Sequence record: NC_054921.1
DNA length: 64,000 nt
Strand: one strand, 5' to 3'
DNA from: Escherichia phage vB_EcoM_IME537
How positions within the stretch are numbered: position 1 is the stretch's first letter; the number at the start of each line of letters is the position of its first letter. Both the position numbers and the translations under genes were made by a program. The notes beneath the pieces were generated by a model. That model made no database searches and was not told the DNA's origin. It was given only the letters and a program-made list of their open reading frames with translations. Positions 3,140-55,921 of this stretch are shown piece by piece.

Positions 3140-6280
<3,141 letters not shown>

Positions 6281-17268: not shown

Positions 17269-18400
17269 TTATGGATAGGTATAGATGATACCAGTTTCTA
17301 AAGCAGTTTTATGAATGATGTATCCATTACGCGATTCTTGAACATCAACTTCTGGATAGTCTTTCATCATCTTCTGAAGAGTGTAACGATGCAAGTAGTA
17401 CTTACTATCTGGGTCGTCAGTTTTCCAATCTTTACCTTCTTCAGTCATTTTTTGGATTTCATCCATAACCCACCAACCGCACCAGATATAAGCTGAGCTA
17501 CGATGTGGAAGAGGATGAACATAAGGTAATTCACCTTCTGGTTCCGGAGCAACTTTATCAGTTACCTGAACTTGGCCTTCTGCTGTAATAGTTTTGCTAT
17601 CATAATCAGTGGCAGTAACAGTGGCAGTAACTTCAATAGTTTGACTTCCAATAGATGATGTATCAACGGTGTATACATTAGTTGACCCTTCTACAGGAGA
17701 AGAATCTTTCTTCCATGAGTAAGTAATTTGTGCTGCGTCAGGTGCGCCAGTAACATTAGCAGTAAATGTAGCCGAAGCATCCTGCTGAACATTAATAGAA
17801 GGAGGAGTCAATGCAATCTGTGGATTCATTGTCTTCTTATTAACTGTCAATGATACTTCATTAGAAGTAACTTCTTTTGTATCATAATCTGTCGCTGTTA
17901 CTTGAGCTACACACTTAATTTTTTTTAACTCCGCTTGTAGTAGGAGTGTAATTGAATGTAGCACTAGTTGCTTCGCTCACAGGAGAACCATCTACATGCC
18001 ACTGATACGTAGCAGATGCACCTGATGGTTGAGAAGCTAAGGCAGCGGTAAATTCAACAGGAGTTCCAATTACTCCAGCAGCAGGACTAGCAGGAGTTAC
18101 AGCTAAGGTAGTTGTCTGTGTCTTATTTTGAACTGTGATAGTTGTAGAAGCTTCTGCTGTTTCGGGACTACTATCGGCAACTTGATTGGTTGCAACTACT
18201 TTAATAGTCTTTTGACCGGCAGGTCCTTTTAGTACATAACTAAAAGTTGCTTCAGCTCCATCCTGTGGAACATCGTCTACAGTCCAAGCATAGGTAATAG
18301 TTCCACCTCCAGTTTCACCACTGGGTGTAGCAGTAAACTGCTGAGTCTGATCTATAACTCCAGTAGGTGTTTTAGGAGTTATATCAACTGTAAAAGCCAT
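17269..18400 (-). pseudogene. hoc: hoc (outer capsid Ig-like decoration protein) disrupted by a +1 frameshift in an A8 tract (plus-strand T8 at 17919-17926)
   Basis: 161-aa N-terminal ORF (17915..18400) and 231-aa C-terminal ORF (17269..17964) in different frames together reconstruct a ~376-aa Hoc; one fewer A restores GVKKIKCVAQ. Confidence 0.8.
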
Positions 18401-29562: not shown

Positions 29563-29917
29563 TTTTGAACTTTTTAGTACGCGTAATAGGCATGCGTCGA
29601 TTTTATACTGTTTCATTGTTTGAAGAGCAGTATCAAAACAGCATTAATGACACCAATTGGATTTCCACCCAAGTTTTTAAGCTTAACTAATGATAGTTTC
29701 TCATTAACACCTATCATTACGATATGCATCATTTTGTCGCCTGGTTTAACGTTTTATCTGTATCACCGCCAGAGGTGTATGTACAAAATCTAAATCCAGG
29801 AAGCACGCTTTCTTCGCCGGCTTGAATAGCAAAAATTTGTGGTATTTTATGCTTAGGATTTAAGTTAACAACCGGCGCCGAAGCGCCGTCAAATAATTAT
29901 GTAATAAGTTCCATGAT
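29563..29917 (-). pseudogene. Degenerate duplicate of the 5' ~350 bp of alt (Alt N-terminal ~117 codons) with stops and frameshifts
   Basis: about 75% DNA identity to 31620..31969; translation MELIT*LFDGASAPVVNLNPKHKIPQIF...TYTSGGDTDK...KMMHIV... mirrors the Alt N-terminus. Confidence 0.7.
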
Positions 29918-31969
29918 TTATCCTTGAACGAACTTGTAAGGCATGTTTGCAATATCTATGCAAGACGCAATAATTCCAAGAGATGATTCTACTTTCTGTT
30001 TAACATTTGATGAAACAAATGATGCAAAGTCAACTCTATCTTCTATATCACCTGTCATTGTAACCAATTCACCAGTTTCCATTAAACGGTCACCGTCATA
30101 AATTGCCGATTCGGTGAGTTCTTCTGTAGTCATAACTTCAGCTTGAATAAGCTTGTTGTTAGTTCTAACTGTTCCATCGTTGTAAGATGCATCGGTTATT
30201 TTATTAACTTTGACCATTAATCCACGTGGCAAAATGACTTCCATTTCATTTGAAGGCGCTAAACTTCCACCGGGTAAAACAACATTGACCTTATCAGCCC
30301 CAGTAATAACCCATCCAATTCCGACTAAATTATCGCTAGAATTAACAAGCCCTTCATCAGTTTTATCAATAGAAACACTTAGACGCTTTTCGTCTGGTAA
30401 AACACCTATAGATGAATCAGTCATCCAAGTACCAAAAATATTTGGATATAATGATGTTGACACAAAGTTTCTAAAATAAAAAACTCGATTTTTTACCAAT
30501 GCTTCATATATTGAAGGTAACATTCGTTGCGAACGATATAAAGTAATACCTTTTGGCAATCGATCACCATTTTTAAAGGCTGAATCTAAATTATCGATGG
30601 CTTGTTCTATTTCGGGTGCTGTCAAAATACTTGTACGCTCATCTGGATTATATAATCCCAAAAGAGCATTATTCATGTCTACATATCCTGAACCCACATA
30701 TTCACGAATTCCGCGTTTTTGAGCCGGTGTGTATTTAGATGAATCTTTATTTTCGACTATAGAATGCAATGACCATCCAACGGTAAGAGCATATCCACGT
30801 AATTCTCTTCGAATAATCTTTGTTTTTATTGCATTCCAAGAATTTTGCACTAACTCATTTGCAGCATCTTGATTTAAATGCGAATGCTTGTTAATATTTC
30901 TTTCTAACCAAGCACTTTTATATTTTTCTAAAGTATCATCGACTATAGAAGCAATAGTTTCTAAAGTTTTTATTGAAGTAATAGATTCTTTTCGTAATCT
31001 TTCTAAAGCTTTATTTTTTATTTCTGCATTAACATCAGATTCTTTATCTTCAGGAATTATAGAAGCTTCTCTGAATGCCATTCCAGCTGTAACACTATTA
31101 AGAGCATTCTCTAATGCAAATCCTGAAGTAGAAATAACGGTTAATTCGTTAGCATCAGAAATTAAAGGCGCGTCGGCGGGTTTATTTAATTCTGCTGCTG
31201 AAGCCTCAAATTTTTGAAACATTGGTGTTTCAAATCTAGAAGATTCCAATGACTGACTTTGTGCAATTGCTCTACGGGAAATTTTAACTTTAACTATTAC
31301 AGCTTGGTCAGAACGTTTATCGTTTTCTTGCGCAATAGATGCTGCAATTGCTTCATTTTTAGTTACTTGAACCCCAGTATCTTTATTGATATAAACATCG
31401 CCGACCTTCGATTCAACTTTAGTAAAGAGCTCGGTACTAATTTCCGGAACTCCTGGAATGTCTTCTAGTGATACATTTTTGCGATGTATAAGAATATATG
31501 CATACTTTTTATCGTAATCCCAGAGTTCCTTAAGAAGGACGTATCTGCCACCTGAACGACTACGGATAAGTCTATCAGCAATAACTTGAATTTGTCGAGC
31601 TTGACCAGCAGTTTTAGACTTAAGAATACGAAGCATACAAGCATCAATTTTATACTGACGCATCGTTTGCATTGCAACAGTAAAAACTGAATTGATGTAA
31701 TTAATTGGACTTGGACCGAGACCTTTTAATTTAGCAATTGAACCCTTAGCAGTTAATGTAAAAGGAACAATATGCATCATTTTATCGCCCATCTTTAAAT
31801 CACGATTAGTATCACCTCCAGATGTATAGGTACATAAACGAAAGCCTGGTTGTTCAATTGCGTCATCAACATGAACTGAAAAAATTTGCGGTATTTTCTT
31901 CTTTGGATTTAAGTTTGTAATTGGAAGAGTAGTATCTTCGTCAAATAATTCTGTAATTAGTTCCATCAT
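29918..31969 (-). CDS. alt: Alt, head-packaged ADP-ribosyltransferase
   Basis: 683 aa, MMELITELFDED...; synteny between gene 54 and gene 30. Confidence 0.9.
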   Translation of the reverse strand: MMELITELFDEDTTLPITNLNPKKKIPQIFSVHVDDAIEQPGFRLCTYTSGGDTNRDLKMGDKMMHIVPFTLTAKGSIAKLKGLGPSPINYINSVFTVAMQTMRQYKIDACMLRILKSKTAGQARQIQVIADRLIRSRSGGRYVLLKELWDYDKKYAYILIHRKNVSLEDIPGVPEISTELFTKVESKVGDVYINKDTGVQVTKNEAIAASIAQENDKRSDQAVIVKVKISRRAIAQSQSLESSRFETPMFQKFEASAAELNKPADAPLISDANELTVISTSGFALENALNSVTAGMAFREASIIPEDKESDVNAEIKNKALERLRKESITSIKTLETIASIVDDTLEKYKSAWLERNINKHSHLNQDAANELVQNSWNAIKTKIIRRELRGYALTVGWSLHSIVENKDSSKYTPAQKRGIREYVGSGYVDMNNALLGLYNPDERTSILTAPEIEQAIDNLDSAFKNGDRLPKGITLYRSQRMLPSIYEALVKNRVFYFRNFVSTSLYPNIFGTWMTDSSIGVLPDEKRLSVSIDKTDEGLVNSSDNLVGIGWVITGADKVNVVLPGGSLAPSNEMEVILPRGLMVKVNKITDASYNDGTVRTNNKLIQAEVMTTEELTESAIYDGDRLMETGELVTMTGDIEDRVDFASFVSSNVKQKVESSLGIIASCIDIANMPYKFVQG

Positions 31970-31989
31970 ATCCTCTCTAGTGTTTATTC

Positions 31990-50899: not shown

Positions 50900-51759
50900 T
50901 TACACCGCCATTTTTCCTTTAATAGGAGGGTGTGATTCGTAACCTTTAAGAACGAAATCTTTAGGCCTGAGTTTAAGAACATATTCCAATTGTTCTTTAG
51001 TAGAAAGATAGCGGAATTTATAAGGCAATCCGCCTATTACCAGTTCACAAAGCTCTTTAGGTTCACGACGTAAAATTTCTTTACACTGTTCTATGTGATT
51101 CATATAGATATGAGTATTACCACCAGAAAATATCAAATCTCCTGGAATAAGATTACACATCTTAGCTACAATATGAACTAATGCAGCATATGATGCAATG
51201 TTGAATGGCAAGCCCAAGAACACGTCAACACTTCTTTGATACCACTGCAAATCCAAATAGCCATTACGCACATTAAACTGATAAAACATATGACAAGGTG
51301 GTAATGCCATATGTTTAAGTTCAGCTGGATTCCATGCTGAAACAATTTGACGCCTATCATTCGGCAGTTTTTTAATACGATCAATAACTTCTACAATTTG
51401 GTCTACACCGCCAAAATCACGCCACTGTTTTCCATAAATTGGACCAAGTTCACCACTATGATATCCTAAATCTTTTGCTTGATTTTCGTAATTTTCATCC
51501 CAGACTGTTTTGCCTTGAATTAATGAATCATGCTGAATTAATCGTAAATCATTTACGTTAGTACTTCCTGACAAAAACCATATTAGCTCAGCAATACAAG
51601 CTTTCCAGGCGAGCTTCTTAGTCGTTACTGCAGGAAAACCTTTAGTTAAATCCCAGCGTAATTTAGTACCGAACAAAGCAATTGTTCCTGTGCCTGTTCG
51701 GTCATCGGTTTCATAACCGTTTTCCAGGATATCTTTAATTAAAAATTGGTATTGTTTCA

Positions 51760-53399: not shown

Positions 53400-53468
53400 T
53401 TAGCAAGCTTTAATCAAAAGGTATAAGCAAACTAACATAACTGCTGCCATAATATAAGGTGCGAACAT
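53400..53468 (-). CDS. Possible 22-aa hydrophobic micro-ORF (MFAPYIMAAVMLVCLYLLIKAC)
   Basis: ATG with GGAG 9 nt upstream; stop immediately before the frd.3 RBS. Confidence 0.25.
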   Translation of the reverse strand: MFAPYIMAAVMLVCLYLLIKAC

Positions 53469-53498
53469 TTTCTTTTCTCCATTAGTTTTGATAGGGTA

Positions 53499-53528
53499 AT
53501 AGTATCACACTACTACCCTTCTGTAAAC
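53499..53528 (-). promoter_or_regulatory. Early promoter (-35 GTTTAC, 18-nt spacer, -10 TACTAT)
   Basis: same spacing as the alc cassette. Confidence 0.4.
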
Positions 53529-53914
53529 TACTTTTTGAAAGTTTTTCGCAAAAGTTCAATGATTTCGTCTACATTGTTTTCGTCAACAATGCAGTGAATT
53601 TTTGTTACGCCAGAAACCTTGTCTTTGACTTCATCTTCTTCAGAAGTTGGTTCTTTATACTCGCGGAAACAATAAAACTCTTCTTCACTAAGTTCAAAAT
53701 AATCATCACCCATACCATCATCATTATAGATTTCGCCATTAGCACAAATGATTTCAGTTACATAATCAAAGCCATCTAAACTTGATATTGATTTAACTTC
53801 AAACCAACCACCATTTTCTTGAATGATGCCGACCATATTAGCATTTGATGAACTAATATCAATGAAAGATTTAATACGATGTGGATTTAACTCATATTTT
53901 TTGCCAATTTCCAT
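53528..53914 (-). CDS. Acidic hypothetical protein in the slot downstream of gene 32
   Basis: 128 aa from ATG 53914 (RBS GAGGA); ORF-track start 53929. Confidence 0.55.
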   Translation of the reverse strand: MEIGKKYELNPHRIKSFIDISSSNANMVGIIQENGGWFEVKSISSLDGFDYVTEIICANGEIYNDDGMGDDYFELSEEEFYCFREYKEPTSEEDEVKDKVSGVTKIHCIVDENNVDEIIELLRKTFKK

Positions 53915-53936
53915 TTTGATTTTCCTCATTTTGATA

Positions 53937-53952
53937 GGGGCTTGACAGCCCC
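53937..53952 (-). terminator. Hairpin GGGGC-TGTCAA-GCCCC
   Basis: 5-bp GC stem. Confidence 0.3.
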
Positions 53953-53959
53953 TTGATAA

Positions 53960-54190
53960 TTATTGTTCAATCAGTCCCATGTAAAATTCTGCATCTTCAG
54001 CATCCATACCATCACAGTATTCATTAGCCATAAATCGTTCAAGAACTTCTAAAGGACCTTCAATAACAATAGAAAAATTGCAATAATTGGGATCATCATG
54101 AATACTTGTGATACTAAGTTCAGGATAACGATTACGAATAATTTCTTCAATATATTCAAAATCAACGATGTCAATATCAACTTTAGCCAT
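53960..54190 (-). CDS. 76-aa acidic protein with its own RBS (AGAGGA), in frame with the gene 32 readthrough
   Basis: ATG at 54190..54188; [16 protein letters not shown]... Confidence 0.5.
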
Positions 54191-55168
54191 ATTGTTTTCC
54201 TCTTTAATCATCAGCAGTATTGCCGATAGTTGTATAGTACCATAGTCCTTGTTGTATGTAAACCGTTTTGTGAAAAAAAAAAATGGGTCCGTGTCATCAG
54301 CACTAGATGAACTGCCAGAGCTTGAGCTCATAAAATCATCTTCAGTTTTTGTTTTGAAGTCATCAACATTAAATGCATCCAAATCATCAGCAACTTTATC
54401 AGCTTTCTTAGCGGCAGTTGCTGCGGCACCGCCCATAGCAGCAGTTCCCATAACTTGACTGAACTTAGTGCTCAGTTCTTCAAACGATTTGAATTTATCT
54501 TTAGAAGTCATTTCAGAAAGGTCAACCATTTGTTCGAACAGTTCTTTCTGGAAAGATTCATCATCAATGTTTGGAATCGCAGATTGATTCAGGAATTTAG
54601 ATTCGTCGTAGTTACTAAAACCAGAAACTTGTTTAACTTTCAGTACAAAGTTAGCACCTTCCCACGGACAAGTTACATCAACCGGAGTTTCACCCATTTC
54701 AACATCAACTGCAATCATTGCATTGATTTTATCCCAGATTTTCTTACCGAAACGGTATTTAAATACTTTACCTTCATTTTCTGGAGCAGCTGGGTCTTTT
54801 ACAACAAGAATGTTAGCCCAGTAAGAAGTTTTACGTTTAACAAGACCGTACTCTTTATTGTCAGTGTTATACAAATCATTTTTACTGATGTACTGACATA
54901 CTGGGCAAGAATCGTAATCACCGTGGGTAGATGAACAGTTTTCAATATACCATTTACCATTTTTCTTGAAACCGTGATTTACAAGAATTGCGAATGGTGC
55001 TTGTTCATCATTTTTAGACGGAAGAAAACGAATTACTGCTTGACCGTTACCCGCATTGTCGAGTTTCAGTTTCCACTCGCCTTTATCTTCAGAAGAAAAA
55101 CCACCTTTATTTCCAGCCAGTTTAGCCATTTGCGCAGCGAGTTCAGCAGTAGATTTACGTTTAAACAT
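53960..55168 (-). CDS. 32: ssDNA-binding protein gp32 as read (402-aa ORF; conserved gp32 ends near 54287, after which there is no stop and the frame runs through a T11 tract into the 76-aa ORF)
   Basis: first ~294 aa match gp32 (zinc ligands H64, C77, C87, C90; ...[14 protein letters not shown]); 3' boundary unresolved. Confidence 0.85.
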
Positions 55169-55267
55169 TTTTATTTCCTTTTTAATTTAATTAACAGTTG
55201 GTGCTATGACGATGTATGACCTCATAGCTGGTCAGTGAGATAATTATAATCTATTTATAATAAGCAA
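55169..55267 (-). promoter_or_regulatory. Gene 32 leader: autoregulatory translational operator (pseudoknot region then A/U-rich tract) plus late promoter TATAAATA (55253-55260)
   Basis: GCTGACCAGCTATGAGGTCATACATCGTCATAGCACC followed by AATTAAATTAAAAAGGAAATAAAAATG. Confidence 0.6.
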
Positions 55268-55921
55268 TTAGTACTTGCAAGATTTCACAGTTTCAATAAA
55301 AACACTTTTAGCTTTCTGTGAATCAATATTTAAAATTTTTCTATAAGCCTTTAACTTTATAGAATAATTATTCCAGACTAAATTATCAGTCTGTTCATCA
55401 TGTTTATCGATTATATTTAAAAACGAATCAAGCAAGATAAACGTCTCAAACGAAATTATATTCGATTGAAGTAGTTTAAAAATATAACTTGATTGAACTT
55501 TTGGATTATATTCAAAAATTTCTTTAAAAGCAGAAACTTCAACTTTTTTACTAAAATAATAAATGTTGCGAATATCTTCTTCAAACTTAAATTTAATTTG
55601 CTTTAAGCGTCCGATATATTCACGATAAAACACAAGTGCATCAGCGTCAGAGATGTCACCAATCCAAGCATCTTGGTTAGCAACAAGATTGCTTATAAAG
55701 ATTAAAGCAAGTTCCTTTAATTTATATTTTTCTGATAACTTCTGGAAAAAATACTTATCCCTTCGCTTTTGATAAGCGGCATCAGACACCCGCATGCACC
55801 AATTATACTTAATTACATCATACTTTCCATTCATATGTTGTTTTATCATTAAGTATAATTTATAAACTGATTTACCATCAATGTATCTTTCACCACCAGC
55901 AGGCATGCGGAGTTTAATCAT
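55268..55921 (-). CDS. 59: Helicase loader gp59
   Basis: 217 aa; ATGA coupling to gene 33. Confidence 0.9.
   Translation of the reverse strand: MIKLRMPAGGERYIDGKSVYKLYLMIKQHMNGKYDVIKYNWCMRVSDAAYQKRRDKYFFQKLSEKYKLKELALIFISNLVANQDAWIGDISDADALVFYREYIGRLKQIKFKFEEDIRNIYYFSKKVEVSAFKEIFEYNPKVQSSYIFKLLQSNIISFETFILLDSFLNIIDKHDEQTDNLVWNNYSIKLKAYRKILNIDSQKAKSVFIETVKSCKY

Follow-up and report, generated by a model that had tools for sequence, protein, structure and literature searches.

A probable deletion allele at the gene 32–frd.3 boundary of a T4-like phage genome, predicting a gp32 that lacks its conserved C-terminal tip and continues into Frd.3

Gene 32 of bacteriophage T4 and its relatives is essential, and its product, gp32, is the textbook single-stranded-DNA-binding protein. 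In single-stranded-DNA-binding proteins (SSBs), short C-terminal tips are generally regarded as essential. Escherichia coli SSB (DDDIPF) and T7 gp2.5 (terminal Phe232), although they belong to protein families different from that of gp32, resemble it in having a short acidic/hydrophobic tip on a disordered tail, which recruits partners. Here, we describe a 64,000-nucleotide stretch of the genome of Escherichia phage vB_EcoM_IME537 (NC_054921.1; "the window" below), in which the gene 32 frame runs without its usual tip into the neighboring gene, frd.3. The acidic C-terminus of gp32 is described as recruiting proteins of replication, repair and recombination. In T7 gp2.5, deletion of F232 kills the interaction with the polymerase while DNA binding is unaffected (bioRxiv 10.64898/2026.02.22.705581). 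Published accounts of gp32 describe its acidic C-terminal domain as the surface that gp59, gp61, RNase H, UvsW, gp41 and other partners contact (PMC3012046; PMC10391720). Dda is the one partner mapped at high resolution; it binds gp32 residues 248–270, and residues 271–301 are disordered in the crystal (PMC11551737).

Several T4 variants are likewise altered in this acidic contact domain: delta-32PR201, a small viable deletion within it (PMC535899), and the laboratory truncations gp32-A and gp32*I, which lack the whole A domain (PMC535899; PMC10391720). The allele in the window compares with these only in part. Gp32-A is a biochemical reagent from which about 50–60 residues have been removed, including the Dda-binding helix; whereas, the window and the related alleles described below come from natural isolates, and the window's gp32 has lost only its last 8 residues and gained 108.

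On the minus strand, positions 53960–55168 form one open frame of 402 codons plus stop, as seen in both the sequence and the list of open reading frames (ORFs). The predicted protein (45.3 kDa, pI 4.67) consists of gp32(1–294), a 32-residue linker and Frd.3(1–76). Codons 1–294 of gene 32 (54287–55168) encode the KRKST motif, the OB/zinc core, the region of the Dda-binding helix (248–270) and the Ser/Asp-rich segment up to ADDTD. The N-terminal basic cooperativity motif is intact, the protein starting with MFKRKST, and the OB-fold/zinc core is evident from matches to T4 gp32 structures (8gme, E 1e-189; 1gpc, E 2e-145). Residues 249–271 match the "gp32 C-terminal peptide" of PDB entry 8s9i, so the Dda-binding helix is intact as well. 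Pfam recognizes two domains in this same ORF, namely gp32 (PF08804) at residues 40–240 (E 3.9e-66) and Phage_FRD3 (PF05798) at residues 327–402, the latter covering profile positions 1–75 of 75 (E 1.8e-36). Appending LDDLLNDL to residues 1–294 gives exactly the common 302-residue gp32 allele, which is found on 135 contigs. Residues 1–294 are identical to that allele, and the predicted gp32 of the window contains no compensating substitutions. What it lacks is the conserved C-terminal tip.

Beyond codon 294, the left breakpoint lies after ...ACGGACC (54286), and the junction itself (54273–54285, minus strand) consists of 13 nt, CA followed by T11. The T11 run of the coding strand, which is A11 on the plus strand, occupies 54273–54283 and is the sole homopolymer of at least nine bases in the window. 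The 32-codon linker (54191–54286) is a translation of the frd.3 promoter and leader, which are untranslated in the normal arrangement. A promoter-like site for frd.3 is retained at 54234–54262 (TTTACA, 17 nt, TACTAT, extended TG); the equivalent site in phage Lutter is annotated as a promoter. The frd.3 coding region (53960–54190, 76 codons plus TAA; PF05798) is preceded by a ribosome-binding site, GAGG, read from the sequence at 54199–54202, 8 nt 5′ of the ATG at 54190. Frd.3 is intact (76 residues, pI 4.05) and in frame with gp32. An earlier sequence-only reading of this locus had proposed that the gp32 frame is sound to residue 294 and then loses its tail and stop, that it crosses an A11 tract and stays open to 53960, and that it thereby fuses to a small acidic ORF of 76 codons with its own ribosome-binding site. 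Alignment with relatives, the sequence and the ORF list bear out each of these observations, and the small ORF can now be named as Frd.3.

Comparison with other phages shows which DNA is missing. The window belongs to a Tequatrovirus (T4-like) genome. HY01, PEC04 and PD112 match it best, at 95–97% identity, and no record matches it exactly. About 500 Tequatrovirus records match a 551-nt query over the site, always as two pieces, and the matched span is 602–651 nt among the 99 matches listed, save for TB004 at 499 nt. The junction was aligned with the corresponding regions of SH_GT, Lutter, G50, JK38, HY01, T2, NR1 and one T4 clone. Between ...ACGGACC and CACAAAAC(G/A)GTTTACA, most relatives have 89 nt where the window has 13, a net loss of 76 bp (75–77, by choice of relative). 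In order, the 89 nt comprise TGGATGACCTTTTGAATGACCTTTAATAG, which corresponds to codons for (L)DDLLNDL plus two stops (TAATAG); a 19-nt spacer; the hairpin GGGGACCCTAGAGGTCCCC; and T6ATTTCA(3–5)T(6–8). At the left breakpoint the wild-type order is ACACGGACC then TGGATG, and the wild-type stretch from tail to terminator carries TGGATGACC...GGGGACCCTAGAGGTCCCC. The hairpin, GGGGACC-CTAGA-GGTCCCC, is the gene 32 terminator.

Hence three elements are missing from the window: the final eight codons (LDDLLNDL) of gene 32, its tandem stops TAATAG and the hairpin of its intrinsic terminator. Besides the hairpin, 55 nt of unique, non-repetitive sequence are gone. A 67-nt segment containing tail, stop and terminator is present in 482 records of the phage collection. 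A consensus terminator scan, which detected the hairpin in G50, flagged no terminator from 53400 to 55400 in the window. The deleted segment is absent from the rest of the window, where it was sought as a transposed copy, and the conserved gp32 tip motif occurs in none of the window's six frames. Alignment with the gene 32 3′ ends of T2 and the T4 clone, a check that the sequence-only reading had proposed, thus shows loss of a specific piece of DNA. This also agrees with its argument that a single homopolymer error cannot account for the locus: versions with T9, T10, T12 or T13 all lack LDDLLNDL, and the codons, stops and terminator are physically absent. In silico, the frame stops after a tail of 24–25 residues past residue 294 with T10 or T13, and after 26–27 residues with T9 or T12; a one-base change of the run gives a gp32 of 318 or 321 residues, again without LDDLLNDL.

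The window is not alone in this loss. A protein search gave a 392-residue protein of phage phiC600P9 with both the gp32 and the FRD3 Pfam domains, encoded on its contig by a single gene in place of gene 32 and frd.3. At a stringent E-value, a 65-nt query centered on the phiC600P9 junction recovered seven records, representing five sewage phages: Citrobacter phage vB_CroM_CrRp10 from France (MG775043.2 / NC_054899.1), Enterobacteria phage phiC600P9 from China (MT630408.1 and MZ681930.1), Escherichia phages vB_Eco-B1.1 from Poland (ON871820.1) and GEP001 from China (PV173775.1), and Shigella phage TB004 from Malaysia (MW822011.1). In CrRp10, vB_Eco-B1.1 and GEP001, ACGGACC is followed by CCAAAGC, the product of a clean 106-bp deletion that yields a 392-residue fusion. 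PhiC600P9 has the same 106-bp deletion and 392-residue fusion, with CCAAAGC in one record and TCAAAGC in the second. The two phiC600P9 records, MT630408.1 and MZ681930.1, differ by one base exactly at the junction, GGACCCCAAAGC versus GGACCTCAAAGC, which turns the first linker residue from Pro to Leu. In TB004, ACGGACC is followed by ACCAAAGC, and the deletion is 105 bp.

The left breakpoint is identical to the nucleotide in all of these alleles, falling after GGACC as in the window's GGACC|CAT11. Like the window, the CrRp10-type allele breaks after ...GATGACACGGACC, at position 1 of codon 295; LDDLLNDL, the stops and the terminator are gone; and the frame passes through the frd.3 leader ((M)IKEENN-MAK...) into a complete Frd.3. 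The two differ on the right side. The CrRp10-type allele is joined at CCAAAGC in the frd.3 promoter spacer, has lost the −35 region and has no homopolymer; whereas, the window resumes, after CA and T11, at CACAAAACGG, 30 nt upstream of the CrRp10-type right breakpoint, keeps the complete frd.3 promoter and encodes 402 residues. The frd.3 allele and promoter spacer of the window are also of a different lineage. On sequence, then, the window allele is distinct from the clean 106-bp allele. TB004 shares with the window the left breakpoint and the loss of tip, stops and terminator, but its deletion is 1 nt shorter than the CrRp10-type deletion and therefore out of frame, leaving a tip-less gp32 of 311 residues (...TADD) and a separate Frd.3. 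The window, with T12, would give the same tail. Among phiC600P9, B1.1, GEP001 and TB004, gene 32 differs by 1–2% and the downstream region by 4–7%, which indicates that the carriers are different viruses, not copies of one record.

The genome of CrRp10 is a de novo assembly of Illumina MiSeq reads, and this phage has a latent period of 17 min and a burst size of 85; the paper does not mention the SSB gene (PMC7412075). The CrRp10-type fused coding sequence (CDS), 1179 nt long, is annotated merely as "single stranded DNA-binding protein", including in one RefSeq record. Our literature search found no paper mentioning a gp32–Frd.3 fusion, and the papers searched make no mention of this family of alleles, which represents an ordinary type of mutation in a surprising target.

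We think it probable that the window carries a genuine, heritable allele of a Tequatrovirus, created by a deletion where gene 32 meets frd.3, and we read it as a further variant in a small natural family of junction deletions. The existence of sister lesions in five distinct phages, isolated separately in four countries, argues for this, as does the fact that an assembler requires junction-spanning reads and that 55 nt of unique sequence are missing too. The fully open 108-codon extension past residue 294 favors a real allele as well. That the deletion itself is real seems to us highly likely; given a real deletion, we also consider it likely that T11 is the exact count, and hence that the fusion is in frame.

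If so, several consequences would be expected. Because no stop or terminator follows codon 294 and the frame is open into frd.3, ribosomes on gene 32 would go on to translate what used to be the frd.3 promoter and leader, 32 codons in all, and then frd.3 itself, and transcripts of gene 32 would read through into the frd.3–frd operon. The main product of gene 32 would be a 45.3-kDa gp32(1–294)–linker–Frd.3 protein. Free Frd.3 could still be produced, and probably would be, since its own ribosome-binding site and promoter-like site are kept. The T11 run sets the downstream reading frame and is prone to slippage or miscalling; slippage on T11/U11 may add minor gp32 isoforms of 318 and 321 residues. 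The cooperativity motif, the ssDNA-binding core, the 5′ autoregulatory region and the Dda-binding helix (248–270) would be untouched, so that the conserved tip alone would be lost, replaced by a folded acidic domain. To judge by analogy with the five phages that carry nearly the same allele, one of which grows normally, such a protein appears able to support phage replication.

A number of observations weigh against a genuine in-frame allele. The exact junction (GATGACACGGACCCATTTTTTTT and a shorter form) is absent from IMG/VR, JGI metagenomes and GTDB genomes, and from the 99 matches listed of the phage collection, in which the flanks are always two pieces. Exact look-ups of the 402-residue protein and of its T10 and T12 versions found none on record, and no fusion allele turned up in the Logan or ENA run-level assemblies queried. 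The junction is complex, 89 nt having become 13 nt with an 11-base homopolymer of a kind the genome otherwise avoids, and no sampled relative would yield it by one clean deletion. There is a second private homopolymer lesion in the window, a change from A7 to A8 in hoc. The tip, moreover, is strongly conserved: the motif [LIV][DNEQ][DESA][LI]L-x-x-[LMIF] stands at the protein end in 116 of 117 gp32-length homologues, reaching down to about 60% identity, the sole tip-less one being TB004. The C-terminal domain is reported to be necessary for partner binding (PMC10391720; PMC3012046). Finally, the deletion is more certain than the exact T count, on which the in-frame fusion depends.

The more permissive pattern AGTGCTGATGACACGGACCV, which requires a non-wild-type base after the breakpoint, gave chance matches only, in G+C-rich bacteria. 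A search of IMG/VR found no relative whose frd.3 promoter is preceded by a long T run; a control pattern was found at only 5 loci there, which implies that this database holds few Tequatroviruses. In a search for near-identical phages, contigs reached by way of Frd.2, DUF7247 or gp59 have a normal gene 32 end in all cases but TB004, and none of them represents this same phage.

The hoc lesion deserves separate description. This head-decoration gene is split on the minus strand (window 17269–18400) into 17915–18400, encoding Hoc residues 1–160, and 17269–17964, encoding residues 158–376. The frame is broken by an A8 run at 17919–17926, against A7 in the best relatives. This may be a miscalled homopolymer, or else a frameshift private to this phage in a gene that is not essential.

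Among the alternatives, the one that survives best, though we consider it improbable, is that the deletion is real and the T run is miscounted or heterogeneous (T10/T12). Gp32 would then be 318 or 321 residues long, with a nonsense tail of 24–27 residues past D294, and Frd.3 would be separate, an arrangement such as that in TB004. Homopolymers of 11 bases are a classic site of length errors, and hoc provides another private one-base homopolymer change. The unfused, tip-less 311-residue gp32 of TB004 (...TADD) exists, and the predicted T12 product shares its ending. On the other hand, four phages fuse gp32 to Frd.3 in frame with no homopolymer at the junction, so a fusion is viable; the coding regions of the remaining 64 kb show no general homopolymer noise; and neither the T10 nor the T12 protein is on record.

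It is also conceivable, and in our view similarly doubtful, that the entire lesion is an artefact of sequencing or assembly and that gene 32 of the real phage ends normally. Such an artefact might stem from low coverage, or from jumping of the polymerase, at a G+C-rich, hydroxymethyl-C-modified hairpin flanked by A/T tracts. The lost region does contain the strongest local hairpin and low-complexity A/T runs; the junction is unique in every collection searched; the tip is near-universally conserved; and the hoc anomaly falls in the same window. However, reads spanning the junction would be needed, and it is not the hairpin alone that is gone but also the 55 nt of unique sequence. Near-identical deletions with a common left end occur in five distinct phages, one of them known from a MiSeq de novo assembly. 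The window otherwise aligns well to HY01, with four indels totaling six bases in the first 29 kb, and besides gene 32 only hoc is broken, relative to HY01, in the whole 64 kb. If the window allele were artefactual, the finding would shrink to a remark about the quality of a single assembly, and the CrRp10-type alleles would stand.

A stronger claim than a heritable deletion would be that loss of the tip and its replacement by Frd.3 is a recurrent, selected state, arising from a site-specific hotspot at codon 294/295. We hold this to be unlikely, somewhat more so than either of the preceding alternatives. Selection might favor phages that evade a host system sensing phage SSB, or phages with rewired replisome contacts; the tip would be compensated for by the acidic domain of Frd.3 or by expression of the frd operon through read-through. 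No sign that Frd.3 mimics the gp32 tip emerged from this analysis. Were the selected-state proposal true, phages in nature could do without a tip that is supposed to be essential, and Frd.3 would acquire an assigned function.

The three junction types (four, counting the single-base variant of phiC600P9) share the left breakpoint, and microhomology at the clean ones does not exceed 1 nt. When the wild-type interval was folded as DNA, the terminator hairpin was the only robust structure (z = −1.3), and no large palindrome brackets the breakpoints in that interval. Derivation of the window junction from a sampled parent by a single deletion was considered and rejected, as no parent yields it. 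One speculative route would involve the GGACC repeat in the terminator arm, a second deletion and expansion of the T run. The common left end may reflect common descent, with a window-type allele that then lost 29–30 nt more, including an unstable T run. No informative shared derived SNPs lie beside the junction to prove common descent of the window and the CrRp10-type alleles, and the different lineage of the window's adjacent promoter spacer speaks against it. It is also possible that the common left end results from a site-specific break, or from selection for removing exactly the tip.

The site-specific break has a particular form that we regard as very improbable: a repair scar of a double-strand break that SegG, a different homing endonuclease or the phage's topoisomerase II would have made during co-infection. 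Illegitimate double-strand-break repair has been described in T4 (PMC2988022), and this idea would fit distinct alleles that share a left end and, where clean, have at most 1 nt of microhomology. The carriers whose 59–32 interval was examined also lack segG and would thus be targets of SegG. This applies to the window, phiC600P9, B1.1, GEP001 and TB004; many wild-type relatives have segG there. Common descent with secondary deletions, however, also gives a shared left end, and no relative has an endonuclease gene near the junction. SegG cleaves within the 5′ portion of gene 32, at a distance of a few hundred bp from where segG is inserted, which counts against a SegG break as well. Nor is segG located in the 32–frd.3 slot, where the sequence-only reading had placed it for T4. 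It sits upstream, between genes 59 and 32, in T4 (PMC2988022) as in HY01, SH_GT, JK38 and the T4 clone, and the 32–frd.3 interval of relatives contains only the terminator and the frd.3 promoter, never segG. The same reading had called the locus a possible recombination scar; loosely, in the sense of a deletion scar, this is apt, and as the remains of a segG slot it is not, there being no segG at this place.

Runs of at least nine A or T residues permit transcriptional slippage in bacteria. That T11 evolved as a programmed slippage or recoding site to generate several gp32 C-terminal isoforms nonetheless seems to us the least credible explanation of all, since, although the run, which lies within coding sequence, has the length needed for transcriptional slippage and leaves all three frames open for at least 24 codons, it is private to the window (no relative examined has at least 9 T there), sister alleles have no run whatever, and the alternative tails are translated promoter and leader, unconserved as protein.

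With a genuine deletion as the preferred reading, at least six Tequatrovirus genomes, the window and the five phages, lack the last eight residues of gp32. In most of them a whole extra protein is fused in place of the tip, and one such phage, CrRp10, has a normal burst. This raises the question of what the tip does and what substitutes for it. It also exposes an annotation blind spot, with fused CDSs deposited as plain "single stranded DNA-binding protein".

Little can be said of Frd.3 itself. The window's Frd.3 aligns with 17 homologues at 66–97% identity, and the family is limited to Tequatrovirus. An AlphaFold2 model shows a compact beta-alpha-beta-beta-alpha-alpha domain (pLDDT 92.9) with only generic ferredoxin-like structural matches, and a literature search found no function named for it. 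In one metagenomic Tequatrovirus contig, k141_90854 from ENA, two genes of the Frd.3 family (82 and 75 residues) flank frd.2 at 4788–5757, so frd.3 is duplicated there.

The genes around the fused ORF lie in the order 59 (55268–55921), 32, frd.3, frd.2 and onward on the minus strand. Genes 59 and 32 are separated by 99 nt (55169–55267, minus strand), which lack segG. The first hairpin 3′ of the fused ORF (53936–53953, minus strand) is AGGGGCT-GTCA-AGCCCCT, with 7 bp and no trailing T run, and was not picked up by the terminator scan; it may possibly provide a 3′ structure for read-through RNA.

Finally, we note other variation in this interval and elsewhere in the window. In the gene 32 terminator, the orientation of the loop depends on the lineage. 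It reads CTAGA in G50, HY01, SH_GT, Lutter and T4, and is inverted in T2, NR1 and JK38 (GGGGACC-TCTAG-GGTCCCC); the comparison includes the records L018 (1260–1278), L012, L013 and L019. The inverted loop suggests a flip of the hairpin by template switching at the site. In the mutant T4 clone T4_583L (MZ375356.1), the frd.3 promoter segment CACAAAACGGTTTACAAGCATAAAGCTTTATGG is duplicated in tandem over 32 bp at about 1745–1810, another rearrangement inside the same 32–frd.3 interval. Two stretches of the window, 29570–31980 and 50960–51040, have 68–79% identity to HY01 with many small indels, compared with 94–97% in their surroundings, a mosaic pattern typical of T-even accessory regions.

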